The notes beneath the pieces were generated by a model. The model worked only from the letters and a program-made list of their open reading frames with translations. It made no database searches and had not been told where the DNA came from. DNA of 51,530 nt, from NCBI RefSeq assembly GCF_003334815.1, contig NZ_QOWO01000030.1, one strand, 5' to 3'. Shown here one piece after another: positions 1 through 51,530 of the stretch (the stretch's first letter is position 1; every line of letters starts with the position of its first letter). The translations under genes and the position numbers were made by a program. The DNA is from Escherichia coli (GTDB lineage Bacteria > Pseudomonadota > Gammaproteobacteria > Enterobacterales > Enterobacteriaceae).

Positions 1-197
1 CGTGTCAGTGGTGGCGCATTATAGGGAGTTATTCCGGCCTGACAAGAGGAAATTTAAAATAATTTTCTGACCGCGCATTTTTTCAGCAAAAGCCCCGTTA
101 ATGTGCCATAAAACAAGCAATTTGCCGTTTTTGCAACCGTAATCACACTTCCTGGTGGCATACTAAGGAGGAATAAAAAGAAAAAGGAAGATAAGTA

Positions 198-890
198 ATG
201 CCTTTAAGCGCACAACAGTTAGCTGCACAGAAAAACCTTTCGTATGTTCTGGCTGAGAAGCTGGCGCAACGGATCTTAAAAGGTGAATATGAACCCGGCA
301 CCATTTTGCCCGGTGAGATTGAGCTGGGCGAGCAATTTGGAGTGAGTCGTACAGCGGTACGCGAAGCGGTCAAAACGTTAACGGCAAAAGGGATGGTTTT
401 ACCGCGACCGCGAATTGGTACTCGGGTCATGCCACAATCGAACTGGAATTTTCTTGATCAGGAATTGCTTACCTGGTGGATGACAGAAGAGAACTTTCAT
501 CAGGTCATCGATCACTTTCTGGTTATGCGTATCTGTCTGGAGCCGCAAGCCTGCCTACTGGCAGCAACGGTTGGCACCGCGGAACAGAAAGCGCATCTCA
601 ATACGTTAATGGCCGAAATGGCGGCATTAAAAGAGAACTTTCGCCGTGAACGCTGGATCGAAGTCGATATGGCCTGGCATGAGCATATCTATGAAATGAG
701 CGCCAATCCGTTTTTGACCTCATTCGCCTCGCTATTCCATTCGGTTTATCACACTTACTTCACGTCAATTACCAGCGACACAGTGATAAAGCTGGATCTG
801 CATCAGGCGATTGTCGATGCGATTATCCAAAGCGATGGCGACGCGGCATTTAAAGCTTGTCAGGCGCTGCTACGCTCACCTGATAAGTGA
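198..890 (+). CDS. yieP: GntR-family transcriptional regulator YieP
   Basis: 230-aa ORF; N-terminal winged-HTH (GVSRTAVREAVKTL) followed by an FCD-type C-terminal domain; purine-rich SD (aaggaag) about 7 nt upstream of ATG; position upstream of hsrA as in E. coli. Confidence 0.9.
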   Translation: MPLSAQQLAAQKNLSYVLAEKLAQRILKGEYEPGTILPGEIELGEQFGVSRTAVREAVKTLTAKGMVLPRPRIGTRVMPQSNWNFLDQELLTWWMTEENFHQVIDHFLVMRICLEPQACLLAATVGTAEQKAHLNTLMAEMAALKENFRRERWIEVDMAWHEHIYEMSANPFLTSFASLFHSVYHTYFTSITSDTVIKLDLHQAIVDAIIQSDGDAAFKACQALLRSPDK

Positions 891-912
891 TAACCCGATA
901 ACAGGACATTGA

Positions 913-2340
913 ATGAGCGATAAAAAGAAGCGCAGTATGGCGGGTTTGCCGTGGATCGCGGCGATGGCCTTCTTCATGCAGGCACTTGATGCCACTATTC
1001 TTAATACCGCCTTACCCGCAATCGCTCATAGCCTTAATCGTTCTCCTCTCGCGATGCAATCAGCCATCATCAGTTATACGCTGACGGTGGCGATGCTTAT
1101 TCCGGTAAGCGGATGGCTAGCCGATCGCTTCGGTACGCGTCGCATTTTTACCCTTGCCGTGAGTCTGTTCACATTGGGTTCTCTGGCCTGCGCACTTTCT
1201 AATTCGCTACCACAGCTGGTTGTCTTCCGGGTTATTCAGGGGATAGGCGGCGCAATGATGATGCCTGTTGCTCGGCTGGCCTTACTGCGCGCTTATCCTC
1301 GTAATGAACTTCTTCCAGTATTGAATTTTGTCGCCATGCCGGGTCTGGTGGGGCCAATTTTAGGCCCCGTTCTTGGCGGCGTGCTGGTCACCTGGGCAAC
1401 CTGGCACTGGATATTTTTAATCAATATCCCCATAGGTATTGCGGGCCTTCTTTACGCGCGCAAACATATGCCCAATTTCACCACCGCACGACGCAGATTC
1501 GATATCACTGGCTTTTTGCTGTTTGGCCTCAGCCTTGTTCTCTTCTCAAGCGGAATAGAGCTATTCGGGGAAAAGATTGTCGCCAGCTGGATTGCCTTGA
1601 CGGTAATTGTCACCAGCATCGGGTTACTGCTTCTCTATATTCTCCATGCACGACGCACGCCAAACCCATTAATTTCATTAGATTTATTTAAAACCCGCAC
1701 TTTCTCGATCGGTATCGTAGGCAATATTGCAACCCGTCTGGGGACCGGCTGTGTACCGTTCCTTATGCCATTGATGTTACAGGTAGGATTTGGTTATCAG
1801 GCGTTTATTGCTGGCTGTATGATGGCACCGACAGCGTTAGGTTCCATTATTGCAAAATCGATGGTTACCCAAGTCTTACGTCGTCTGGGCTATCGCCATA
1901 CGTTAGTGGGGATCACGGTGATTATTGGGCTAATGATCGCTCAGTTCTCTTTGCAATCACCAGCAATGGCTATATGGATGCTGATCTTGCCGTTGTTTAT
2001 ATTAGGGATGGCTATGTCGACGCAGTTTACCGCGATGAATACCATCACACTTGCCGATCTGACCGATGACAATGCCAGCAGCGGTAACAGTGTTCTGGCG
2101 GTCACGCAGCAACTGTCGATTAGTTTAGGCGTTGCTGTAAGTGCGGCCGTCCTTCGCGTTTATGAAGGAATGGAAGGCACAACGACTGTCGAACAATTCC
2201 ACTATACGTTTATCACAATGGGCATTATTACTGTTGCTTCAGCAGCAATGTTCATGCTTCTGAAAACAACCGATGGTAATAATTTGATCAAAAGACAGCG
2301 TAAATCTAAGCCGAACCGCGTTCCATCAGAATCGGAGTAA
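913..2340 (+). CDS. hsrA: MFS transporter HsrA (YieO), 14-TMS drug:H+ antiporter-like
   Basis: 475-aa ORF, highly hydrophobic with MFS signature ([11 protein letters not shown]); 22-bp spacing after yieP suggests co-transcription. Confidence 0.9.
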
Positions 2341-3298
2341 GTTGTAATCGTTGTTGCTGAAGGGTCGGCTGGGTTATCCGATGGATGAGTACATCAATCG
2401 CCAGCTCCCCCAGTTCATCTTTCGGTTGGTGGATAGTGGTTAATGGTGGCGTCATAAAGCTTGCCAGTTCGATATCGTCATAGCCAATCACCGCGATATC
2501 CTGCGGAACCTGTAACTCTGCCTGATATAACGCCTGGTAAACGCCAACAGCCATAGCGTCATTTCCGGTAAAGACGGCCTGAGGACGCAGCGGATGTGAT
2601 AGCAGTTGGCGCATAGCGTCAAACCCGCCGTTAAATTCAAAATCACCAGTGACTTCATAGCCATCAGGAATGTTGAGACCCGCACGTTTCATCGCCGCCC
2701 GATAACCTTCCAACCGCAGGCGCGCCGGAGTTTTATCCAGCGGGCCGGTAATACAGGCGATACGGGTATGACCTTTATCGATCAGATATTGCGTTGCTAA
2801 GTCTCCGCCCAGCAACGAGTTATCCTGAATAAGATCGCTGTCGCCATCGAACGGAGCCCAGTCCATCATCACAGTAGGCACTGTCGGATAACGTTGCATG
2901 ATTTCACGCGAAGGTTGATGCGTTTCGGTGCACAGTAACAGCAAGCCATCAACGCGTTTTTGCATCAGCGTTTCCAGATTGCGATTCATCCGCTGTTCAT
3001 CGCCTTCGGTATTGCAAAGGACGAGACTATAACCGCGTTCGAAGCAGCTGCGTTCAACGCCACGCACCAGTTCTGAATAGAAAGGATTGGTACTGGCAGT
3101 GATCAACATGCCAATGGTATGTGTTTGATTGAGTTTGAGGCTACGCGCCAGAGCTGATGGCGCGTAATTGAGTTCTTTAATCGCCGCTTCAACTTTGGCG
3201 GTAATCGCTTCACTGACGAAGCGATCTTTATTGATAACGTGAGAAACTGTTGAGGTAGAAACGCCCGCCAGGCGGGCAACATCTTTCATTGTAGCCAA
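2306..3298 (-). CDS. rbsR: ribose operon repressor RbsR (LacI family)
   Basis: 330-aa ORF; N-terminal LacI-type HTH ([23 protein letters not shown]); last gene of the rbs cluster; 3' end overlaps hsrA 3' end convergently. Confidence 0.95.
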
Positions 3299-3301
3299 GC
3301 G

Positions 3302-4231
3302 TCACCTCTGCCTGTCTAAAAATGCGTCGATCTCTTCACGCCACGGTACGGAAGGTTGTGCGCCTTTACGTGTTACGGCAATCGCAGCGGCAGCATGGGC
3401 AAAACGAATCGCCTCTGGCAATGGTTTTTCTTCCAGCAATGCCGTGATTAACGCACCGTTAAAGGTATCTCCGGCAGCAATGGTATCGACAGCCTGCACC
3501 CGGAATCCAGGAACGCGCTGACCTTCACCATTCACGCTAGCCCATACACCACGACTTCCTAAAGTAATCAGTACAGTACGGATACCTTTTTCATGCAGTA
3601 CCTGCGCCGCCTTCGCTGCATCTTCATCATTTTCAACACGAATACCGGTGAGCTTTTCTGCTTCCGTTTCGTTTGGCGTAATAATGTCCACCAGCGCCAG
3701 CAGTTCGTCAGGAAGTTCGCGAGCCGGAGCCGGGTTAAGCGCAACGATAGTCTTATTTTGATGGGCGATTTTCGCCGCTGCCATCACACTTTCGAGTGGT
3801 GATTCCAGCTGCATTAATAATGCTGACGCGTTGGCAATACGCTCACGTTGCGCTTCCACCAGCGCCGGGGAAAGGGCAGCATTAGCGCCGGCATGAATAC
3901 CGATGACATTCTCACCTTCGCCATTAACAAAAATCAGCGCCACACCTGTTGATTCGCCTTTGATCACGCTGACCGGAGTAATATCAATGTTATCAGTGGC
4001 GAGCTGCTGGCGAACGCTCTCACCAATGCTGTCATCACCCGTACAGGCAATAAACGCGATATTCGCACCGCTACGCCCAGCAGCCACAGCCTGATTCGCG
4101 CCTTTGCCGCCAAATGCAACCTGATAGTGGTTACCGGTTACGGTTTCGCCTGGAGTAGGAAAAGATTGAAGATTAAGAATGTGGTCAGCATTAATGCTGC
4201 CAAGAACAACGAGGCTGCCTGCGTTTTGCAT
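3302..4231 (-). CDS. rbsK: ribokinase RbsK
   Basis: Track ORF 3302..4258 (318 aa); start placed at internal Met (MQNAGSLVVLGSINADHIL) giving 309 aa as for E. coli RbsK; PfkB-family GG and DTxxAGD motifs present. Confidence 0.92.
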   Translation of the reverse strand: MQNAGSLVVLGSINADHILNLQSFPTPGETVTGNHYQVAFGGKGANQAVAAGRSGANIAFIACTGDDSIGESVRQQLATDNIDITPVSVIKGESTGVALIFVNGEGENVIGIHAGANAALSPALVEAQRERIANASALLMQLESPLESVMAAAKIAHQNKTIVALNPAPARELPDELLALVDIITPNETEAEKLTGIRVENDEDAAKAAQVLHEKGIRTVLITLGSRGVWASVNGEGQRVPGFRVQAVDTIAAGDTFNGALITALLEEKPLPEAIRFAHAAAAIAVTRKGAQPSVPWREEIDAFLDRQR

Positions 4232-4356
4232 ATTCGGGATGTCCATAAAATGCGCCACCGTGTTAGGGTGGCGCGTGCCCTGCTTTTCTTTATATTACAC
4301 GTTCATCTGTCGATGACGTATTTATGTCACCATCAGGTCATACAACCTGATTAAAA

Positions 4357-5247
4357 CTACTGCTTAACAACCAGTTTCAGATCAACCGGATACTTAGCCT
4401 GAACTTTCTCGCCTTTCAGCACTTTATCTGCGGTTTCGACGCCTTTCGCGCCAATCTGATCGGGTAGCTGAGCGATAGTCGCTGCTAGTTTGCCATCATT
4501 CACCGCTTTTTCGCCATCCGGTGTACCGTCAAATCCGACGACCATCACATCCGATTTACCGGCAGTTTGCAGTGCGCGCAGCGCGCCCAGCGCCATTTCA
4601 TCATTCTGCGCGAATACAGCCTGAACATCCGGATGAGCGGTCAACAGGTTCTGCATTACGTTCAAACCTTTAGTGCGATCAAAATCTGCTGGCTGGCTGG
4701 CAAGAACATTAAACTTGTGAGCAGCAACGGCCTGCTGGAAGCCTTCGCCACGTTCACGGGCTGCGGATGTACCAGCAATGCCTTGCAGCTCGATAACTTT
4801 GGCACCTTCACCCGCTTTCTTCGCGATGTAATCACCAGCGATTTTGCCGCCCAGTACGTTATCAGAAGCAATGTGGCTCACCACTTCACCTTTCGTTGCC
4901 TGGCGGTCAAGAGTGATAACCGGGATGTTCGCCTGGTTAGCCATCTTCACAGCATTACCCACTGCGTCGGAGTCGGTCGGGTTAATCAGCAGAATTTTTG
5001 TGCCGCGAACGGTTAAGTCCTGCACGTTCGCCAGCTCTTTCGCCGGGTTGTTCTGGGAGTCCAGCACCACCAGGTTATAGCCAAGTTTATCCGCCTCTTT
5101 CTGCGCGCCATCTTTCAGCGATACAAAGAACGGGTTGTTAAGCGTGGAGACCACCAGCGCGATGGTGTCTTTTGCCATCGCATTCGCACTGACGGTGGCG
5201 CTTAGCGCAACAGCGGAAACCAGGGTAGCCAGTTTTTTCATGTTCAT
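4357..5247 (-). CDS. rbsB: ribose ABC transporter periplasmic binding protein RbsB
   Basis: Track ORF 4357..5253; start set at the third codon ([23 protein letters not shown] signal peptide) giving 296 aa. Confidence 0.93.
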
Positions 5248-5271
5248 ATTCAAGATGTCCTGTAGTCGTTA

Positions 5272-6237
5272 TTACTGCTTTTTGTTGTCTACCAGCACCG
5301 CCAGCAAAATCACCACCGCTTTGACGATCATCTGGTAATAGGAGGAAACACCTAACAAATTCAATCCATTATTAAGGAAGCCAAGAATTAATGCGCCGAT
5401 CAACGTCCCAACAATGCGACCTTTTCCGCCCGCCAGACTCGTACCGCCCAGAACCACCGCAGCAATAGCATCCAGCTCATAGCCAGTCCCCGCCGTGGGT
5501 TGTGCGGAGGAGAGACGCGCCACTTCAATGATCCCGGCCAGCGATGCCAGCAGACCACAAAGAGAATAGACGATGATTTTGATTTTATTGACGTTGATAC
5601 CAGAAAGACGCGTTGCCGCTTCGTTGCCGCCCAGCGCGTAGATGTAACGCCCCAGACGCGTGTGATGCAGCATGTACCAGGCCGCGAGGAAGACAATCCC
5701 CATGATCCAGACTGGCGTCGGTACGCCCAGCGGACGACCAATACCAAACCAGCCAAACAGATCGGCGTTCTCAGTAAAGCCGGTATTCACTGGGCTACCG
5801 TTGGTATAAACCATGGTCACGCCGCGCAGTAAAAGCATCATAACCAGCGTAGCGATAAACGCCTGGACGCGACCTTTCGCTACAATCACCCCGGTTACCG
5901 CACCAATTGCGGCACCTAACGCGAGAGCAGCAGCGACAGCCACCAGCGCATTGACTTCAATGCCGACGATAGATGCAGCAACTGCGCCGGTCAGCGCCAA
6001 CAGAGAACCTACCGATAAGTCGATGCCCGACGTCAGGATCACCAGCGTCATCCCGACCGCCATAATGGCGTTCACTGAGGTTTGCTGGAGAATATTGAAT
6101 AAGTTATTGATGGTGAAAAAGTTCGGGCTTAACGTCGAGACAATCGCGATCAGCACCAGCAGAGCGATAAGCGATTTCTGCTCCATCAGCCACGCTTTCG
6201 TGAAATAACGGCGACCAGAGACAGTCTGGGTTGTCAT
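5272..6237 (-). CDS. rbsC: ribose ABC transporter permease RbsC
   Basis: 321-aa polytopic membrane ORF between rbsB and rbsA; matches RbsC. Confidence 0.95.
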   Translation of the reverse strand: MTTQTVSGRRYFTKAWLMEQKSLIALLVLIAIVSTLSPNFFTINNLFNILQQTSVNAIMAVGMTLVILTSGIDLSVGSLLALTGAVAASIVGIEVNALVAVAAALALGAAIGAVTGVIVAKGRVQAFIATLVMMLLLRGVTMVYTNGSPVNTGFTENADLFGWFGIGRPLGVPTPVWIMGIVFLAAWYMLHHTRLGRYIYALGGNEAATRLSGINVNKIKIIVYSLCGLLASLAGIIEVARLSSAQPTAGTGYELDAIAAVVLGGTSLAGGKGRIVGTLIGALILGFLNNGLNLLGVSSYYQMIVKAVVILLAVLVDNKKQ

Positions 6238-6241
6238 TTTT

Positions 6242-7747
6242 TTACTCCTGATTCACGCGATTAAGCTTGCCCACAGCGGCAGCCATTAACACTTCCTGGG
6301 TGGCCTGCTCACGAGTAAATTCCCCGCTGAGATGCCCTTCATGCATGACGATGATGCGATCGCTCATGCCTAATACTTCTGGCATCTCCGATGACACCAG
6401 AATGATGCTCAAGCCATCGGCTTTGAACTGGTTAATCAGTTGATAGATCTCTTTTTTCGCGCCGACATCTACGCCACGGGTAGGTTCATCAAGGATCAAC
6501 ACTTTGGGGCGTGTCATCAGACCGCGGGCAATCGCCACTTTTTGCTGATTGCCACCGGAAAGCAGACCAATTGCCTGTTCCATCGACGGAGTTTTCACAT
6601 TAAACAGACGAATGAAATCACTCACAGCCTGCTGTTCATCGGCATGCTTCAAACTGCCGCCAGCGCGGCTGAAGTAGCGCAGCGCTGTCAGCGACATGTT
6701 CTCTTTTACTGACATGCCCAACACTAAACCGTCACGTTTACGGTCTTCGGAGATATACACAATGCCGTTTGCCAGGCCATCCTGCGGTGAACGGGTAACG
6801 ACTTCATGCCCATCCAGGGTGACGTAACCGCTGGTGCGCGGTAGTGCGCCGTAGAGCACTTTCATCAGTTCGGTACGACCTGCGCCCATCAAACCAGAGA
6901 CGCCAAGAATTTCGCCTTTGCGTAAAGTAAAAGAGACATCGTTAACGCCAGGTCCGCAGAGATTATCGACTTTCAGGCGGATATCTCCCGGCGCTTTGTC
7001 CAGGTGCGGATATTGATCTTCCAGCTTGCGACCCACCATCATCTCAATCAGCGAATCTTCGGTCAGTGATGCCACTTCGCGCTCAGCAATAAATTGCCCA
7101 TCACGAAAAACGGTAACGTCATCGCAAATCTCGAAGATTTCTTTCATGCGGTGGGAGATATAGACAATACCGCGGCCTTGCGATTTCAGCTCGCGGATGA
7201 CGCGGAACAGGGATTCGGTTTCGGTATCGGTCAGCGCATCGGTCGGTTCATCCATAATGATGACTTTCGACTCAAAGCTCAGCACTTTGGCGATTTCAAC
7301 CATTTGCTGGTCACCGATGGAAAGATCGCCCACCAGCTTGTCGCTTTTAAAGCGCAGGTTAAGTTTAGCCAGCAATTTATCCGCTTCGGCATACATGGTT
7401 TTCCAGTCAATTTTGCCAAAGCGATTAACAAACTCACGACCGAGGAAAATGTTTTCGGCAATGGTCAACTGCGGGATCAGGTTCAGTTCCTGATGGATAA
7501 TCCCAATCCCGGCTTCCTGGGAAGATTTTGGCCCGGTAAATGTCGTTTCTTTCCCCAGCCATAAAAGCGTACCGGCATCGCGAGTATAGATGCCAGTAAG
7601 CACTTTCATCATGGTGGATTTACCCGCGCCGTTTTCGCCCACCAGCGCCATCACGCGGCCCGGATAGACATTTAACGCTGCGCCCGAGAGGGCTTTTACG
7701 CCCGGGAAGGCTTTATCGATGCCTTTAAGCTGAAGTAATGCTTCCAT
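6242..7747 (-). CDS. rbsA: ribose ABC transporter ATP-binding protein RbsA (tandem ABC domains)
   Basis: 501-aa ORF with two Walker A motifs (GENGAGKST and GLMGAGRTE) and ABC signature LSGGNQQK. Confidence 0.95.
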
Positions 7748-7754
7748 GACGGCC

Positions 7755-8174
7755 TCAGAACGTCACGCCAGCACAGAGAATGATATTCGCATACGGAGAA
7801 CATTCTCCGCTGCGAATTACCGCCTGACTTTCTGCGGTTTGTTGTTTGAATTGTTCATGCGTGGTGTAACGAATTTCAATGGTATTTCCCTGGTGTTTTT
7901 GCAGCTGCTCAAGGTGAGTGAGCAACGTTTCGTGGAGTTGCGGATTATGGTGTTTGATCTCTTCCGCGATAATGGCCGCCTCGACCTGCATTTCATTTGT
8001 GACGACGCCCAGCACCTGCATAAAAGAAGGTACACCCTGGGTTAATGCCATATCGATACGCGTTGTACTTTTGGGGATGGGTAAACCAGCATCACACACC
8101 ACCAGCGTATCGGTATGTCCCAGACGGGAGATCACCGATGAAATATCAGAATTAAGAACGGTGCCTTTTTTCAT
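7755..8174 (-). CDS. rbsD: D-ribose pyranase RbsD
   Basis: Track ORF 7755..8210 (151 aa); start placed at internal Met ([16 protein letters not shown]) giving 139 aa; first gene of rbsDACBKR; the RbsR operator palindrome lies immediately upstream. Confidence 0.92.
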
Positions 8175-8186
8175 TTTTTTCTCCAT

Positions 8187-8206
8187 CAGCGAAACGTTTC
8201 GCTGAC
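8187..8206. promoter_or_regulatory. RbsR operator (perfect 20-bp palindrome) in the rbsD leader
   Basis: tcagcgaaacgtttcgctga is a perfect inverted repeat of the LacI-family operator type, 10-15 bp upstream of the rbsD start codon. Confidence 0.8.
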
Positions 8207-8299
8207 CCACAGTTTAATCCTGACTGAGTTGGGAAAACCATCGTGACGTTACGGAAATGTGATCAACCTCGAAACGTTTTACATGGTGATTAACCATGA

Positions 8300-8337
8300 A
8301 AACAAAAACGCCCCCTTATGAAGAAAGGAGGCGTCTG
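8300..8337 (-). terminator. kup rho-independent terminator
   Basis: On the minus strand, a GC-rich hairpin (gacgcctcc...gggggcgt) followed by a T-run immediately after the kup stop. Confidence 0.6.
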
Positions 8338-8340
8338 GCG

Positions 8341-10209
8341 TTAGATTTCGACCTGAGTACCCAGTTCGATAACCCTGTTTGGCGGGATTTCAAATTGATC
8401 TGGTGCACGCAGCGCATTACGTTGCAGCAGCAAGTACAGCTTGCCGCGCAGACGCAAATACCACGGGCGTTTGCCGAGGATCAACGACTCATGCGACATA
8501 AAGAAGGAGGTTTCCATCATCCGGCAACTTAATCCTTCCAGACCGCAGCGGTGGAAAACTTCTTCTACGTTTGGCGTTTCTCGCCAACCATAACTTGCCA
8601 CCACGCGCCAGAAAGTGGGCGACAGTTGTTCAATCTGTACCCGACGGACGTTATGGACATATGGAGCGTCTTCGGTGCGCAGAGTTAACAGAATCACCCG
8701 CTCATGCAATACCTTGTTATGTTTAAGGTTATGCATCAGCGCAAAGGGAATGACGTTGATTGCACGCGACATATACACCGCGGTCCCGGGCACGCGAACA
8801 GGCGGTGATTTCTCCAGCGAAGCAATCATCGCTTCCAGAGAGTTACCATGTTCATGCATCCGCCGCAGCAAGCGGAAACGCTCGCTCTTCCAGGTGGTCA
8901 TCACGATAAACATCACAGTACCGAGGCTCAATGGCAACCAGCCGCCGGAGAGCAGTTTATCGAGGTTAGCGGTGAACAATGGAATATCGACACAAAGGAA
9001 AGCAATCAGGATCAGCGCAACAAAATACTTATTCCAGTGCCAGTTCTGACGTGCCACGGTAGTCGAGAGAATAGACGTCAGCACCATGGTTCCGGTCACC
9101 GCAATCCCGTACGCCGCCGCCAGGTTGCTGGAGTGCTCAAAGCTGACAATCACAATCACGACCGCGACATAGAGCATCCAGTTCACAAACGGAATATAGA
9201 TTTGCCCTGACTCCATTTCGGAGGTGTGAATAATGCGCATCGGCGACAAATATCCCAGACGTACCGCCTGACGCGTCAATGAGAAGACGCCAGAGATAAC
9301 CGCCTGCGAGGCAATTACCGTCGCCAGTGCGGCGATGATCAGCAGCGGGATCAGCGCCCAGTCCGGTGCCAACAGGAAGAACGGGTTCTTAATCGCTTCC
9401 GGGTTCTTTAACAACAGCGCTCCCTGACCGAAGTAATTAAGGGTCAAGGAAGGTAATACGACGGTGAACCACGCCAGGCGAATAGGGAACTTACCAAAGT
9501 GCCCCATATCAGCATACAGCGCCTCGACCCCCGTAATCGACAACACCACTGCCCCTAATGCAATAAAAGAAACCGTTTTGTATTCAAGGAAGAAATGCAC
9601 CGCCCACATTGGATTCAGCGCATGCAGCACTTCCGGGTTAGCAATAATGCTACGTAACCCCAGTCCTGCCAGAATCAAAAACCAGGTCAGCATGATCGGC
9701 GCAAACAGCTTACCGACCATAGCCGTGCCATGTTTTTGAATCATAAATAATAAAGTGAGAACGATAATTGAGAGGGGAACTATCCAGGTATCCAGCTGCG
9801 GGGCGACGATTTCCAGACCTTCAATGGCTGACATCACCGAAATAGCGGGTGTTATGACGACTTCACCATAGAAAAAGCTGCCGCCGATTAGCCCCATAAT
9901 CACCAGCATTGATGTGGTTCGCGCCGACGTATTACGCCCGGCAAGCGACATCAACGTCAGGATCCCCCCCTCACCGGCGTTATCTGCCCGCATCACGAAG
10001 GTGAGATATTTAATGGAAACCACAAAGATTAGCAGCCAGAAGATCAGCGATAAAAAGCCAAACACGGCATCGCGTTCAACGCCAAAACCAAACTGGCCGG
10101 ACAAACATTCACGAAGTGTATATAACGGGCTGGTACCAATATCGCCGTAGACAACTCCAATCGCCGCGAGGGTAATCGCGGGCAATGATTGCTTATTATC
10201 AGTGCTCAT
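8341..10209 (-). CDS. kup: low-affinity K+ uptake protein Kup (TrkD)
   Basis: 622-aa ORF, N-terminal polytopic membrane domain plus C-terminal cytoplasmic domain; matches Kup. Confidence 0.95.
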
Positions 10210-10431
10210 AGACTAGTCTTTCGTTGAAATATGAAATGTGTGCTTAGTCCCTTGGCCCACAAAAAAGCGCACAGTATGCACGATTAACGGCAAAATCGTA
10301 CTCCTAAATGCGGCCACATTAACCTGGCTCAAAGAAAAATACCCCCCCTTTGAGACTATTTTAGCCACCAGCAAGAAACGTCTATACTCGCAATTTACGC
10401 AGAACTTTTGACGAAAGGACGCCACTTCATT

Positions 10432-11928
10432 ATGGCTCACCCTCATTTATTAGCGGAAAGAATTTCCCGCCTGAGCAGTTCGTTGGAAAAGGGGCTTTAT
10501 GAACGTAGCCACGCCATCCGCTTGTGTTTATTAGCGGCATTAAGTGGTGAAAGTGTGTTCCTCCTTGGCCCGCCAGGTATTGCCAAAAGTTTGATCGCCC
10601 GGCGCTTAAAATTCGCCTTTCAGAATGCCCGCGCGTTTGAATATCTGATGACCCGCTTCTCCACGCCGGAAGAAGTTTTTGGTCCCCTTTCTATTCAGGC
10701 GCTAAAAGATGAAGGGCGCTATGAACGTTTAACCAGCGGTTACCTGCCGGAAGCAGAAATTGTCTTTCTGGATGAGATCTGGAAAGCGGGCCCGGCAATT
10801 CTTAATACCTTGCTCACCGCCATTAACGAGCGCCAGTTCCGCAACGGTGCACACGTAGAAAAAATCCCGATGCGTCTGCTGGTGGCGGCCTCCAACGAGC
10901 TGCCGGAAGCAGACAGCAGTCTGGAAGCGTTATATGACCGCATGCTGATTCGTCTGTGGTTAGATAAAGTGCAGGATAAAGCGAATTTCCGCTCCATGCT
11001 GACCAGTCAACAGGATGAAAACGACAATCCGGTTCCTGATGCCTTGCAGGTCACAGATGAAGAATATGAACGCTGGCAGAAAGAGATTGGTGAAATTACG
11101 CTGCCCGATCATGTATTTGAGCTGATTTTTATGCTGCGCCAGCAACTGGATAAATTACCGGATGCGCCTTATGTCTCGGATCGTCGCTGGAAAAAAGCGA
11201 TCCGATTATTGCAGGCCAGCGCCTTTTTTAGCGGTCGCAGTGCTGTTGCCCCGGTAGATCTCATTTTGCTGAAAGATTGCCTGTGGTATGACGCGCAAAG
11301 CCTGAATTTGATACAACAACAAATTGATGTATTGATGACCGGTCACGCCTGGCAACAGCAAGGGATGTTGACTCGCCTTGGCGCGATTGTGCAACGTCAC
11401 CTGCAACTCCAGCAGCAACAAAGCGATAAAACAGCCTTAACGGTAATTCGTCTGGGCGGCATTTTCAGCCGTCGTCAGCAGTATCAACTTCCTGTTAACG
11501 TTACTGCTTCCACTCTGACTCTACTGCTGCAAAAACCGTTAAAACTGCATGATATGGAAGTGGTTCATATCTCCTTTGAGCGTAGCGCGCTGGAACAGTG
11601 GCTGAGCAAAGGTGGTGAAATTCGCGGTAAACTGAACGGTATCGGCTTTGCCCAGAAACTGAATCTGGAAGTTGATAGCGCCCAACATCTTGTCGTTCGC
11701 GATGTAAGTTTACAAGGCAGTACGCTGGCACTTCCCGGTTCATCGGCTGAAGGTCTGCCTGGTGAAATAAAACAACAACTGGAAGAGCTTGAAAGCGACT
11801 GGCGCAAGCAACACGCTTTATTCAGCGAACAGCAAAAATGTCTGTTTATCCCTGGCGACTGGTTAGGTCGCATTGAAGCCAGCCTACAGGATGTCGGTGC
11901 ACAGATTCGCCAGGCACAACAATGCTAA
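10432..11928 (+). CDS. ravA: MoxR-family AAA+ ATPase RavA
   Basis: Track ORF 10408..11928; start placed at [12 protein letters not shown] giving 498 aa; Walker A GPPGIAKS and Walker B VFLDEI present. Confidence 0.93.
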
Positions 11929-13373
11929 CGCTGGATACGCTTAATGTGATGCTGGCCGTCAGCGAAGAGGGATTGATCGAAGAGATGATCATCGCACTGC
12001 TGGCCTCACCGCAGCTGGCGGTCTTCTTTGAAAAATTCCCACGCCTGAAGGCGGCAATCACTGATGATGTTCCCCGCTGGCGTGAAGCGCTGCGCAGTCG
12101 GCTGAAAGATGCCCGAGTCCCGCCGGAACTCACCGAAGAGGTGATGTGCTATCAGCAAAGCCAGCTCCTCTCCACGCCACAGTTTATTGTGCAGCTACCA
12201 CAGATCCTGGACTTACTGCATCGTCTGAATTCTCCATGGGCAGAACAAGCCCGACAGTTGGTTGATGCTAACAGCACGATCACTTCAGCGTTACACACGC
12301 TTTTTCTCCAGCGTTGGCGTTTAAGTCTGATCGTGCAAGCAACGACGTTAAATCAACAGCTATTAGAAGAAGAACGCGAACAACTGTTGAGTGAAGTTCA
12401 GGAACGCATGACGCTGAGCGGACAACTTGAACCGATTCTCGCAGATAACAATACTGCAGCTGGTCGTCTGTGGGATATGAGCGCCGGTCAGCTTAAACGT
12501 GGCGACTATCAGTTGATTGTGAAATACGGTGAATTTCTTAACGAACAGCCGGAACTGAAACGCCTGGCAGAGCAGCTGGGGCGTTCTCGGGAAGCCAAAT
12601 CAATACCGCGCAACGATGCGCAGATGGAAACCTTCCGCACCATGGTGCGCGAACCGGCGACGGTTCCTGAGCAGGTTGATGGTCTGCAACAAAGCGATGA
12701 TATTTTACGTCTCCTGCCGCCAGAACTGGCGACACTAGGGATAACGGAACTGGAGTATGAGTTTTACCGTCGGCTGGTGGAAAAACAGTTGCTCACCTAT
12801 CGCCTGCACGGTGAGTCGTGGCGTGAAAAAGTGATCGAACGTCCGGTGGTACATAAAGATTACGATGAACAGCCGCGCGGGCCGTTTATTGTCTGTGTGG
12901 ATACTTCCGGCTCAATGGGCGGCTTTAATGAACAGTGTGCGAAAGCGTTCTGCCTGGCCTTGATGCGCATTGCTCTCGCAGAAAACCGGCGCTGCTATAT
13001 TATGCTATTTTCCACCGAGATCGTCCGTTATGAGCTTTCAGGCCCACAAGGCATCGAACAAGCAATCCGTTTTTTAAGCCAGCAGTTTCGTGGCGGCACC
13101 GATCTTGCCAGTTGTTTTCGCGCCATTATGGAACGCTTGCAAAGCAGGGAATGGTTTGATGCCGATGCGGTGGTGATTTCTGATTTTATCGCTCAGCGGT
13201 TGCCTGACGACGTGACGAGTAAAGTGAAAGAGCTGCAGCGGGTACATCAGCATCGCTTTCATGCCGTGGCGATGTCGGCACACGGCAAACCCGGCATCAT
13301 GCGCATTTTCGATCATATCTGGCGCTTTGATACCGGGATGCGAAGCCGCCTGCTCAGACGCTGGCGGCGATAA
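11922..13373 (+). CDS. viaA: von Willebrand factor A domain protein ViaA
   Basis: 483-aa ORF whose ATG overlaps the ravA stop (ATGCTAA, 7-nt overlap), indicating translational coupling; VWA MIDAS-like motif DTSGSM. Confidence 0.93.
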
Positions 13374-13377
13374 ATTA

Positions 13378-14370
13378 TTACAGCAGAGAAGGGACGCTCT
13401 CGCGAACAGCAGCTGGCCATACTCCACACTGAACCTGGCCGATATGCGGCAGTTGCAGCAGCAGCATAGTCAAACGAGACTGGCCGATACCGCCGCCGAT
13501 GGTCTGCGGCATTTCACCGCGCAGCAGCGCCTGATGCCACTCCAGCTCCAGGCGATCTTCGTCACCGGTCAGCGCCAGTTGATGCTTCAGCGTGTCGGCA
13601 TCTACACGGATCCCCATGGAGGAAAGCTCAAACGCATCTTCCAGTACCGGGTTCCACACCAGAATATCGCCGTTCAGACCCGCATGGCCCAGCTCTGACG
13701 GGGTGCTCCAGTCATCATAATCCGGTGCGCGCACGTCGTGGCGATGACCATCGCTCAGCTTGCCGCCAATCCCGACAAGGAATACCGCGCCAAGATCTTT
13801 CGCTATCGCCCGCTCACGCCCTTTGGCATCAAGATCCGGATAACGAGACAGTAACTCCTGGCTGTGTACGAAGTGGATCTGATCCGGCAGGAACGGTGCC
13901 AGGCCAAACTCTTCGCTAACCGCAGCTTCGGTTGCTTTAATTCCCGCCCAGATCGCCTCTACCGTGCTTTTCAGAGTCGAGAATTGACGCTCACCGTCGC
14001 CCATTACGCGTTCCCAGTCCCACTGGTCAACATAGACCGAGTGCAACGGAGAAAGACGGTCTTCATCGGGGCGAAGGGCTTTCATGTGCGTGTACAGCCC
14101 TTCGCCCGCGCTGAAGTCGTGTTGCCCTAAGGTCTGACGTTTCCACTTCGCCAGTGAATGAACCACTTCGAACTGGGCATCAGGCAGAGCTTTCACTTTT
14201 ACCTGCACCGCTTTTTCACAGCCCGACAAGTTATCCTGCGTGCCATCCCCCACACGGCTAAGAATCGGCGCCTGGACTTCGATCAGCCCCAGACGTTCTT
14301 CCAGTTGACGAGAAAAGTGAGATTTCACGAAGCTAATTTGACGTTGTTTGGCAATGTAAGCGGTTTTCAT
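13378..14370 (-). CDS. asnA: aspartate--ammonia ligase AsnA (asparagine synthetase A)
   Basis: 330-aa ORF matching AsnA; divergent from asnC across a 151-bp control region. Confidence 0.95.
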
Positions 14371-14521
14371 TTTTTATACTCCTGCGTCCTGTTGCTTATG
14401 ATTAAGCAACAAAAACCGACACACATGCAATAATCATTCAATAAAAAGCCTAACTCACTTTTGATTCATTAAAAAAGAAGGCTAAAATAGAATGAATCAT
14501 CAATCCGCATAAGAAAATCCT

Positions 14522-14980
14522 ATGGAAAATTATCTGATCGACAATCTGGACCGTGGCATCCTGGAAGCATTAATGGGCAATGCGCGCACCGCTTACGCCG
14601 AACTGGCGAAACAATTTGGCGTCAGTCCGGGGACGATTCACGTTCGAGTAGAGAAAATGAAGCAGGCGGGGATCATTACCGGGGCGCGTATTGATGTCAG
14701 CCCGAAGCAGCTCGGTTATGACGTAGGCTGCTTTATCGGCATTATATTAAAGAGCGCCAAAGACTACCCTTCCGCGCTGGCAAAGCTGGAAAGCCTTGAT
14801 GAAGTCACTGAAGCCTATTACACAACCGGCCACTACAGCATCTTTATAAAAGTGATGTGCCGTTCGATCGACGCTCTCCAGCATGTACTTATCAACAAGA
14901 TCCAAACAATTGATGAAATTCAGTCCACCGAGACATTGATCGTCCTGCAAAACCCGATCATGCGTACCATCAAGCCCTGA
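14522..14980 (+). CDS. asnC: Lrp/AsnC-family transcriptional regulator AsnC
   Basis: 152-aa ORF; HTH (NARTAYAELAKQFGVSPGTIHVRV) plus RAM domain. Confidence 0.95.
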   Translation: MENYLIDNLDRGILEALMGNARTAYAELAKQFGVSPGTIHVRVEKMKQAGIITGARIDVSPKQLGYDVGCFIGIILKSAKDYPSALAKLESLDEVTEAYYTTGHYSIFIKVMCRSIDALQHVLINKIQTIDEIQSTETLIVLQNPIMRTIKP

Positions 14981-15001
14981 TCGGCTTTTTTAATCCCATA
15001 C

Positions 15002-15051
15002 TTTTCCACAGGTAGATCCCAACGCGTTCACAGCGTACAATACGCCACTCT
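15002..15051 (+). promoter_or_regulatory. mioC promoter region with DnaA box
   Basis: ttttccaca 9-mer (DnaA-box-like) followed by tacaat -10-like hexamer about 20 bp upstream of the mioC ATG. Confidence 0.6.
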
Positions 15052-15069
15052 TAATAAAGGTGGCGGTTT

Positions 15070-15513
15070 ATGGCAGATATCACTCTTATCAGCGGCAGCA
15101 CCCTCGGCGGTGCCGAATATGTAGCAGAACACCTGGCTGAAAAGCTGGAAGAGGCGGGTTTTACCACCGAAACGCTGCACGGTCCGCTGTTAGAAGATTT
15201 ACCTGCCTCAGGGATCTGGCTGGTTATCAGCTCCACCCACGGTGCCGGAGATATTCCGGACAACCTTTCTCCTTTCTATGAAGCATTGCAGGAACAGAAG
15301 CCCGATCTTTCTGCAGTCCGCTTTGGCGCAATCGGTATTGGCAGTCGTGAATATGACACCTTTTGTGGGGCTATCGATAAACTCGAGGCAGAACTCAAAA
15401 ATTCCGGTGCAAAACAGACAGGCGAAACACTGAAGATCAACATTCTTGATCACGACATTCCGGAAGATCCGGCAGAAGAATGGCTGGGATCGTGGGTTAA
15501 TTTACTCAAATAA
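15070..15513 (+). CDS. mioC: FMN-binding flavodoxin-like protein MioC
   Basis: 147-aa ORF; flavodoxin signature (ISGSTLGGAEYVAEH); directly flanks oriC and is transcribed toward it. Confidence 0.95.
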   Translation: MADITLISGSTLGGAEYVAEHLAEKLEEAGFTTETLHGPLLEDLPASGIWLVISSTHGAGDIPDNLSPFYEALQEQKPDLSAVRFGAIGIGSREYDTFCGAIDKLEAELKNSGAKQTGETLKINILDHDIPEDPAEEWLGSWVNLLK

Positions 15514-15535
15514 GTATACAGATCGTGCGATCTAC

Positions 15536-15544
15536 TGTGGATAA
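15536..15544. promoter_or_regulatory. DnaA box R4 (TGTGGATAA)
   Basis: Exact consensus 9-mer at the mioC-proximal end of oriC. Confidence 0.85.
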
Positions 15545-15715
15545 CTCTGTCAGGAAGCTTGGATCAACCGGTAGTTATCCAAAGAACAACTGTTGTTCAG
15601 TTTTTGAGTTGTGTATAACCCCTCATTCTGATCCCAGCTTATACGGTCCAGGATCACCGATCATTCACAGTTAATGATCCTTTCCAGGTTGTTGATCTTA
15701 AAAGCCGGATCCTTG

Positions 15716-15724
15716 TTATCCACA
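15716..15724. promoter_or_regulatory. DnaA box R1 (TTATCCACA)
   Basis: Exact consensus 9-mer adjacent to the 13-mer region. Confidence 0.85.
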
Positions 15725-15737
15725 GGGCAGTGCGATC

Positions 15738-15781
15738 CTAATAAGAGATCACAATAGAACAGATCTCTAAATAAATAGATC
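15738..15781. repeat. oriC DNA-unwinding element: three tandem AT-rich 13-mers
   Basis: ctaataagagatc / aatagaacagatc / aaataaatagatc, the reverse complements of the canonical GATCTnTTnTTTT 13-mers. Confidence 0.9.
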
Positions 15782-15891
15782 TTCTTTTTAATACCCAGGA
15801 TCCCAGGTCTTTCTCAAGCCGACAAAGTTGAGTAGAATCCACGGCCCGGGCTTCAATCCATTTTCATACCGCGTTATGCGAGGCAATCACC

Positions 15892-17781
15892 ATGTTTTAT
15901 CCGGATCCTTTTGACGTCATCATCATTGGCGGGGGTCATGCAGGCACCGAGGCCGCGATGGCCGCGGCGCGTATGGGTCAACAGACTCTGCTTTTGACAC
16001 ACAATATCGACACTCTGGGGCAGATGAGCTGCAACCCGGCGATCGGCGGTATTGGGAAGGGACATCTGGTAAAAGAAGTGGATGCACTCGGCGGTCTGAT
16101 GGCGAAAGCGATCGATCAGGCGGGTATCCAGTTTAGGATACTAAACGCAAGCAAAGGACCGGCGGTTCGCGCTACCCGAGCTCAGGCGGATCGTGTGCTC
16201 TACCGTCAGGCGGTACGTACGGCGCTGGAGAACCAACCGAACCTGATGATCTTCCAGCAGGCGGTTGAAGATCTTATTGTCGAAAACGATCGCGTGGTCG
16301 GTGCTGTTACCCAAATGGGACTGAAGTTCCGTGCCAAAGCCGTCGTGCTCACCGTTGGGACGTTCCTCGACGGTAAAATTCATATCGGTCTGGATAATTA
16401 CAGCGGTGGCCGTGCTGGTGATCCGCCGTCCATTCCGCTTTCTCGCCGTTTGCGTGAACTGCCGCTGCGCGTTGGTCGTCTGAAAACCGGGACACCACCG
16501 CGTATTGATGCTCGAACCATCGACTTTAGCGTACTGGCGCAACAGCATGGCGATAACCCAATGCCGGTATTCTCGTTTATGGGCAATGCGTCCCAGCATC
16601 CCCAGCAGGTGCCGTGTTATATCACTCATACCAACGAGAAAACCCATGATGTGATCCGCAGTAACCTCGATCGTAGCCCAATGTACGCAGGGGTGATCGA
16701 AGGTGTCGGCCCACGCTACTGCCCGTCGATCGAAGACAAAGTCATGCGCTTCGCCGACAGAAATCAGCATCAGATCTTCCTTGAACCGGAAGGACTGACC
16801 TCTAATGAAATTTATCCGAACGGTATCTCCACCAGCCTGCCGTTCGATGTGCAGATGCAAATCGTCCGCTCTATGCAGGGGATGGAAAACGCGAAGATCG
16901 TGCGTCCGGGTTATGCCATTGAGTATGACTTCTTCGATCCTCGCGACCTGAAACCGACGCTGGAGAGCAAGTTTATCCAGGGGCTGTTCTTTGCTGGTCA
17001 GATTAACGGCACTACCGGTTACGAAGAAGCCGCTGCGCAAGGTTTGCTGGCCGGTCTTAACGCTGCCCGTCTGTCTGCTGACAAAGAAGGTTGGGCTCCG
17101 GCACGTTCTCAGGCGTATCTCGGCGTACTAGTTGATGACCTGTGCACTTTAGGAACCAAAGAACCGTATCGTATGTTTACTTCGCGCGCAGAATATCGTC
17201 TGATGCTACGCGAAGATAATGCGGATCTGCGTTTGACTGAAATCGGTCGTGAACTGGGCCTGGTGGATGACGAACGTTGGGCGCGCTTTAACGAGAAACT
17301 TGAGAATATCGAGCGTGAGCGTCAGCGTCTGAAATCGACCTGGGTAACCCCGTCGGCGGAAGCTGCAGCCGAAGTGAATGCTCACCTGACTGCGCCGCTT
17401 TCCCGTGAAGCCAGTGGTGAAGATCTGCTGCGTCGTCCGGAAATGACTTATGAAAAATTAACCACGCTGACGCCGTTTGCCCCTGCGTTGACAGACGAAC
17501 AGGCGGCGGAACAGGTTGAGATTCAGGTTAAATACGAAGGTTATATCGCGCGCCAGCAAGATGAGATCGAAAAGCAGCTGCGTAACGAGAACACCCTGCT
17601 ACCCGCGACACTGGATTACCGCCAGGTATCCGGTCTTTCTAACGAAGTGATCGCCAAACTTAACGATCACAAACCAGCCTCTATCGGCCAAGCTTCGCGT
17701 ATTTCTGGCGTCACGCCTGCGGCCATCTCCATTCTGCTGGTGTGGCTGAAAAAACAGGGTATGCTGCGTCGTAGCGCATAA
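15892..17781 (+). CDS. mnmG: tRNA uridine 5-carboxymethylaminomethyl modification enzyme MnmG (GidA)
   Basis: 629-aa ORF; FAD-binding [10 protein letters not shown] motif; directly flanks oriC. Confidence 0.96.
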
Positions 17782-26024: not shown

Positions 26025-26324
26025 GCGCGTGTGACCCGTCCTGAATAGCGTTCACATAGATCCTGCTGATATAAAACCCCCCTGTTTTCCTGTTTATTCA
26101 TTGATCGAAATAAGAGCAAAAACATCCACCTGACGCTTAAATTAAGGTACTGCCTTAATTTTCTGCAGACAAAAGGCGTGACGATGGTCGAAAATGGCGC
26201 TTTCGTCAGCGGGGATAATCCGTTATTGAACAATTTATCCTCTGTCCATTTCACGATGAAAAAAATGTAGTTTTTTCAAGGTGAAGCGGTTTAAATTCGT
26301 TCTCAAATTACAGTCAGGACGCGT

Positions 26325-51369: not shown

Positions 51370-51530
51370 GTACTGAGAGATCCCCTCATAATTTCCCCAA
51401 AGCGTAACCATGTGTGAATAAATTTTGAGCTAGTAGGGTTGCAGCCACGAGTAAGTCTTCCCTTGTTATTGTGTAGCCAGAATGCCGCAAAACTTCCATG
51501 CCTAAGCGAACTGTTGAGAGTACGTTTCGA

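Follow-up and report, generated by a model that had tools for sequence, protein, structure and literature searches.

The closest described system is the chromosomal origin of Escherichia coli K-12 MG1655, oriC, whose element order, 13-mer and DnaA-box consensus sequences, and AT-cluster are set out in PMC5742627, PMC5716108, and PMC9198467. For this sequence, both DnaA-dependent unwinding and autonomous replication have been demonstrated experimentally (PMC5742627, PMC5716108, PMC9198467). A wider family of enterobacterial origins, including those of Salmonella, Klebsiella, Enterobacter, Citrobacter, Kluyvera, Raoultella, Kosakonia, and other genera, shares the same architecture together with the gene order mioC-oriC-mnmG. 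Two further kinds of chromosomal site, datA and DARS1/DARS2, resemble oriC in assembling DnaA oligomers on clustered 9-mer DnaA boxes accompanied by an IHF site (PMC5835720); in the reviews consulted, they are set apart from oriC in that they act by changing DnaA's nucleotide state and do not serve as origins.

The locus analyzed here lies in a window of E. coli DNA, by which we mean the whole stretch of 51,530 nucleotides. Compared with the 245-bp minimal oriC of K-12 MG1655, it has the same element order, spacing, and flanking genes and no sequence difference; the window simply reads as the reverse complement. The other genera diverge from it in the spacers, box C1, and the IHF core, whereas the window carries the exact E. 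coli K-12 version. From datA and DARS, the locus appears to be distinguished by a 13-mer unwinding element, a dense GATC cluster, and its predicted function as an origin.

Genome context and identity to the K-12 origin

The non-coding region between mioC and mnmG occupies window positions 15514 to 15891 (378 bp). Direct comparison with K-12 MG1655 (NC_000913.3) revealed 0 differences over these 378 bp, in reverse orientation, and the flanking 5,501 bp were also 100% identical; the alignment to the K-12 minimal oriC that the earlier note had proposed as a check therefore runs without a mismatch over both stretches. Window positions were converted to K-12 positions by subtracting them from 3941525, and the "top" strand of oriC in K-12 corresponds to the minus strand of the window. 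By this conversion, the RefSeq MG1655 feature "origin_of_replication oriC" (3925744..3925975), located between mnmG and mioC, falls at window positions 15550 to 15781. At 232 bp, the RefSeq feature does not cover the full 245 bp of the classical minimal oriC: DnaA box R4 lies outside it, and the low-affinity box C1 is truncated.

On the E. coli K-12 map, the window is located at 84.6 min (MG1655 3,889,995-3,941,524, reverse orientation). Up to the junction with an insertion sequence, the window remains collinear with MG1655 3890153-3941524 over 51,372 bp and differs from it by only 6 substitutions, and the genes follow the native order yieP...rbs...asnA-asnC-mioC-oriC-mnmG-atp...bgl...tnaB. 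Neither oriC nor its flanking promoters carry any mutation relative to MG1655. The earlier note had described this DNA as core rather than accessory, and a genome survey bears that out: with a 551-bp query and an identity of at least 95%, the oriC segment was matched in 5,425 of 5,426 complete RefSeq E. coli genomes. Every match was chromosomal, the median was one per genome, and the features beneath were always mioC and mnmG. Among Enterobacteriaceae loci that were informative on this point, mioC and mnmG likewise flank the origin on the same strand in 63 of 63, at a median spacing of 383 bp.

As judged by this identity, window positions 15536 to 15781, with the AT-cluster extending to 15793, almost certainly constitute the single chromosomal oriC of a strain of the E. 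coli K-12 lineage, unchanged from the reference. Because the match to K-12 is base for base, the origin is textbook knowledge; the locus was already known and holds nothing novel.

GC skew, which the earlier note had proposed to plot on the full chromosome, was examined in the window as a further check. The skew changes sign from -0.034 over positions 1 to 15535 to +0.037 over 15782 to 51372, and within the 51.5-kb window cumulative G-C is lowest at 15924, some 140 bp away from the unwinding element. The cumulative curve has a flat bottom from 15.0 to 18.1 kb. In a block-permutation test, the switch was significant (9 of 2,000; P ~0.005); the best split lay at ~10.5 kb, not exactly at oriC, and the skew therefore places the origin only within a few kilobases. 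Thus, GC skew supports an origin here without pinpointing it.

Six single-nucleotide substitutions and one IS10 end, the latter ~35 kb from oriC, are all that sets the window apart from the reference. Relative to MG1655, the substitutions in 51.4 kb are at window positions 4673, 24296, 24456, 37058, 38701, and 43013. Four are non-synonymous (rbsB I192T, atpD G103S, bglB D293A, and cbrC D164A), and two are silent (atpD G49 and bglF L377). With a 19-kb query, no genome carrying all six was found among complete RefSeq genomes, and the set suggests that the source may be an unrecorded, possibly mutagenized K-12 laboratory derivative. The last 158 bases (51373-51530) are not K-12 sequence and belong to one end of an IS10/ISVsa5 (IS4-family) element, namely, the end adjoining the 3' end of its transposase gene. 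The element is inserted in the tnaA-tnaB spacer, 7 to 8 bp past the tnaA stop codon (K-12 position 3890153), and the tnaA-IS10 junction was not found in any complete RefSeq E. coli genome. Rfam yielded a single match for the window, to the enterobacterial small RNA STnc410 (26084-26241, minus strand, 188 bits) in the atpC-glmU intergenic region; RbsZ, an annotated K-12 small RNA at about 4247-4480 of the window, gave no Rfam match.

Elements of the origin and its flanks

The features of the locus are listed in Table 1. In the classical numbering, window position 15803, the G of the BamHI site, is position 1 and window position 15530 is position 274, from which the limits of the minimal origin follow. 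The earlier note had placed the origin at 15530-15803. Every origin element that it named is present at or within these limits, which correspond to the classical fragment running from the BamHI site to slightly beyond R4. The minimal origin itself is narrower: the interval adds 22 bp on one side, containing the AT-cluster and the BamHI site, and 6 bp on the other.

Table 1. Features of the oriC locus in window coordinates, with identity to the window across enterobacterial genera where available
Feature	Sequence	Position	Strand	Cross-genus identity	Remarks
Minimal oriC		15536..15781	-		Classical positions 23-268, from 13-mer L to DnaA box R4; 245/246 bp
BamHI site	GGATCC	15798..15803			Start of classical oriC numbering; holds the 12th GATC of 15530-15803
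AT-cluster	TATTAAAAAGAA	15782..15793	-	0.96 (mean)	Auxiliary unwinding element immediately outside the minimal origin; sequence and role from PMC9198467
13-mer L	GATCTATTTATTT	15769..15781	-		Part of the duplex-unwinding element; 1 mismatch to consensus
13-mer M	GATCTGTTCTATT	15753..15765	-		1 mismatch to consensus; carries TT[A/G]T(T) motif
13-mer R	GATCTCTTATTAG	15738..15750	-		2 mismatches to consensus; carries TT[A/G]T(T) motif
DnaA box R1	TTATCCACA	15716..15724	+		Consensus; high-affinity left anchor of the DnaA-oligomerization region
IHF-site core	GATCAACAACCTG	15685..15697	-	0.63	Between R1 and R5M
tau1		~15673..15683	-		Low-affinity box centered on GGATCA; approximate boundaries
R5M	TCATTCACA	15661..15669	+	0.98	Low-affinity DnaA box; role in PMC5716108
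tau2	AGGATCACC	15650..15658	+	0.98	Low-affinity, 2 bp from R5M; approximate, from the spacing rule
I1	TTATACGGT	15639..15647	+	0.89	Low-affinity; approximate, from the spacing rule
I2	CTGATCCCA	15628..15636	+	0.93	Low-affinity; approximate, from the spacing rule
DnaA box R2	TTATACACA	15610..15618	-		Moderate affinity, middle region; PMC5742627
C3		15581..15589	-		Low-affinity; overlaps R3; approximate, from the spacing rule
DnaA box R3	TTATCCAAA	15575..15583	+		Classical box, overlapped by low-affinity C2 and C3
C2		15570..15578	-		Low-affinity; overlaps R3; approximate, from the spacing rule
I3	TTGATCCAA	15559..15567	-		Low-affinity; approximate, from the spacing rule
C1	TTCCTGACA	15548..15556	-	0.50	Low-affinity; approximate; least conserved box across genera
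DnaA box R4	TTATCCACA	15536..15544	-	0.99	Consensus; high-affinity right anchor
mioC		15070..15513	+		FMN-binding flavoprotein, 147 aa; transcribed towards oriC
mioC-promoter DnaA box	TTTTCCACA	15002..15010	+		60 bp upstream of the mioC ATG
mnmG (gidA)		15892..17781	+		629 aa; transcribed away from oriC
Promoter-like TTCTCA-16-TAGAAT		15811..15838	+		Consensus scan; candidate gidA/mnmG promoter beside the GATC-rich left end of oriC

Three AT-rich 13-mers had been claimed for the origin, and they are present on the minus strand at 15738-15781, with one or two mismatches to the published consensus GATCTnTTnTTTT (PMC5742627). Lone matches to this consensus are not enriched in the whole window (18 with at most 2 mismatches versus 17 expected), so the argument rests on the tandem arrangement: three 13-mers in register on the same strand at a spacing of 15 to 16 bp occur nowhere else in the window. 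Together with the AT-cluster, the 13-mers make up 56 bp with 76.8% A+T, the 99.8th percentile of the window. In single-stranded form, the TT[A/G]T(T) motif of the M and R 13-mers is bound by DnaA (PMC9198467).

The DnaA boxes R1 to R4, likewise named in the earlier note, were all located within its interval. R1 and R4 match the consensus TTATNCACA and face opposite ways at either end of the DnaA-oligomerization region, with R2 between them; they form a perfect 11-nt inverted repeat whose arms are separated by 169 nt. Four DnaA boxes with at most 1 mismatch fall within 189 bp, compared to 0.07 expected (Poisson P ~1e-6). The phrase "complete initiator architecture" in that note was right about R1 to R4 and fell short as an inventory, since R5M, tau1 and tau2, I1 to I3, C1 to C3, the IHF site, and the AT-cluster belong to it and are all present. 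R3 does not figure among the 12 functional boxes counted in current reviews (PMC5716108).

The low-affinity boxes would form two opposed arrays whose sequences are identical to those of K-12, with a 2-bp spacing in both and a gap of 3 bp between C1 and R4. For tau1 and tau2, I1 to I3, and C1 to C3, the 9-mer boundaries were placed with the help of a 2-bp spacing rule and are approximate. The IHF core is presumably at 15685-15697, as assigned from the consensus WATCAANNNNTTR. A full-text search for the low-affinity 9-mer strings returned mostly unrelated papers and retrieved no published site table. The list and order of the sites, namely, R5M, tau1-2, and I1-2 on one side and C3, C2, I3, and C1 on the other, are those of PMC5716108. 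PMC10325909 and PMC5716108 locate the IHF site between R1 and R5M.

A dense GATC cluster had also been reported for the origin, with a site count proposed as a check. In the minimal origin we counted 11 GATC sites, in agreement with PMC5742627, compared to 1.34 expected from the density of the window (P = 1.8e-7, or ~4e-5 once all 246-bp stretches are allowed for). In 500 shuffles, no 246-bp stretch contained more than 8. The interval 15530-15803 has 12 complete sites, and a 13th straddles 15529-15532. The second-densest 246-bp stretch in the window, with 6 sites, lies inside mnmG at about 16108-16353. GATC is also enriched window-wide, beyond oriC, with 280 sites versus 200 expected, a number reached in 0 of 100 shuffles.

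As had been noted previously, mioC reads into the origin and mnmG reads away from it, and no terminator-like site was found between the mioC stop codon and R4. The remark that a DnaA-box-like 9-mer sits in the mioC promoter is correct, because the literature names TTTTCCACA the "mioC (R5) box" (PMC5835720). Through this box DnaA represses mioC transcription, and the same literature deals with cell-cycle transcription (PMC5835720, PMC4446571). A consensus promoter scan of the window did not recover the mioC promoter; by eye, a candidate comprises a likely -10 element, TACAAT, at 15036-15041 and a weak, GATC-containing -35 element, TAGATC, at 15013-15018. On the other side, the candidate gidA/mnmG promoter in Table 1 fits the published placement of the gidA promoter, which adjoins the sequestered left end of oriC (PMC4446571). 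Another promoter-like sequence, TCCACA-17-TATACT (15513-15541, minus strand), overlaps R4 and points out of oriC toward mioC, antisense to the gene; it is a match to the consensus only.

Conservation among enterobacterial relatives

Relatives of the origin were collected from data with one genome per species by scanning for an exact pattern composed of the M 13-mer, the R 13-mer, and R1, in which the spacer bases were left free. This core pattern was found in 75 Enterobacteriaceae species representatives (75 loci) of the genera Escherichia, Salmonella, Citrobacter, Klebsiella, Raoultella, Enterobacter, Kluyvera, Kosakonia, Leclercia, and others. The 70 loci of sufficient length were aligned, and they share 75 to 98% identity with the window over classical positions 1 to 268.

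Outside the part fixed by the pattern, conservation across these 70 loci was 0.86 at element positions versus 0.71 in spacers (Mann-Whitney P = 3e-9). R5M, tau2, R2, C2, and R4 each reached a conservation of at least 0.97. Among 14 GATC sites checked, 12 had every column at 0.96 or higher, and the minimal origin accounts for 10 of them, out of its 11; 4 of these 12 conserved sites fall in the pattern-fixed part. In Salmonella, 26 of 41 differences from the window lie in spacers, and in Klebsiella, 26 of 44. Across the family, R1, R5M, tau2, R2, C2, R4, and nearly all GATC sites are near-invariant. This is the classical picture of an enterobacterial origin, with protein-binding sites fixed at fixed distances and free spacers between them.

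Measured as identity to the window base in the 70 origins, C1 (0.50) and the IHF core (0.63) drift, whereas R5M, tau2, C2, and R4 stay at 0.98 or above. One of the 75 records with the enterobacterial oriC core, a contig (L074, CACSKA010000004.1), is labeled Chryseobacterium sp. 18061; the label is probably wrong or the assembly contaminated, because the same mixed-culture project yielded a Citrobacter isolate (L041).

Mechanism, alternative readings, and meaning

The mechanism considered here is the one established in the literature for the identical sequence (PMC5742627, PMC5716108, PMC9198467), and we infer origin activity of the window locus from its identity to K-12. R1 and R4, the boxes of high affinity, would be occupied by DnaA. 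Ahead of initiation, the opposed low-affinity arrays would fill with ATP-DnaA: R5M-tau2-I1-I2 next to R1 and C3-C2-I3-C1 next to R4, R2 lying between the two arrays. IHF would introduce a bend between R1 and R5M. The left DnaA oligomer would then open the A+T-rich 13-mers (M and R) and hold the T-rich strand via the TT[A/G]T(T) motifs, after which DnaC would load two DnaB helicases and bidirectional replication would begin. The 11 GATC sites are expected to serve as Dam methylation targets that, hemimethylated after firing, would be bound by SeqA, blocking re-initiation for about one-third of the cell cycle. The mioC promoter, which DnaA represses, would send transcription into the origin, transcription of mnmG/gidA would leave it, and both would modulate origin topology.

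Clustered DnaA boxes with an IHF site, next to a mioC promoter region that titrates DnaA (PMC5835720), could also belong to a titrating or regulating site of the datA or DARS1/2 kind, which would change how much DnaA is available or which nucleotide it carries and would not itself initiate replication. The sequence is, however, identical to the annotated K-12 oriC, and the three 13-mers with the AT-cluster, the 11 GATC sites, and the nearby GC-skew switch are features that the reviews consulted do not report for datA or DARS. We exclude such a site, whose probability we regard as vanishingly small, because of the oriC identity, the unwinding element, the GATC cluster, and the skew switch taken together.

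A different possibility accepts an intact origin and makes it non-native or inactive: the DNA could stem from a cloned minichromosome or synthetic construct or from an ectopic second copy, or initiation could take place elsewhere. The private changes of this laboratory-type K-12 derivative, namely, six substitutions and an IS10 end absent at that site from complete RefSeq genomes, lend it some color. Against it, the gene context is native, with no vector or ectopic site, the skew switch falls at the locus, and oriC and its flanking promoters are free of mutations. Collinearity with MG1655 over 51,372 bp, in which only six substitutions occur, excludes a cloned or ectopic origin, and the possibility as a whole is extremely improbable. 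That initiation control in the source strain is altered by changes elsewhere in the genome, with the origin itself being the reference one and harboring no hidden new element, is very unlikely.

The native, unchanged K-12 oriC thus remains the preferred reading of the locus, and the earlier note's identification of a canonical oriC is confirmed. It adds nothing to the knowledge of replication initiation, and its use is solely that of an anchor: it fixes the map position, the core-chromosome status of the surrounding DNA, and the direction of replication on each side, the last of which helps in interpreting other findings in the window.
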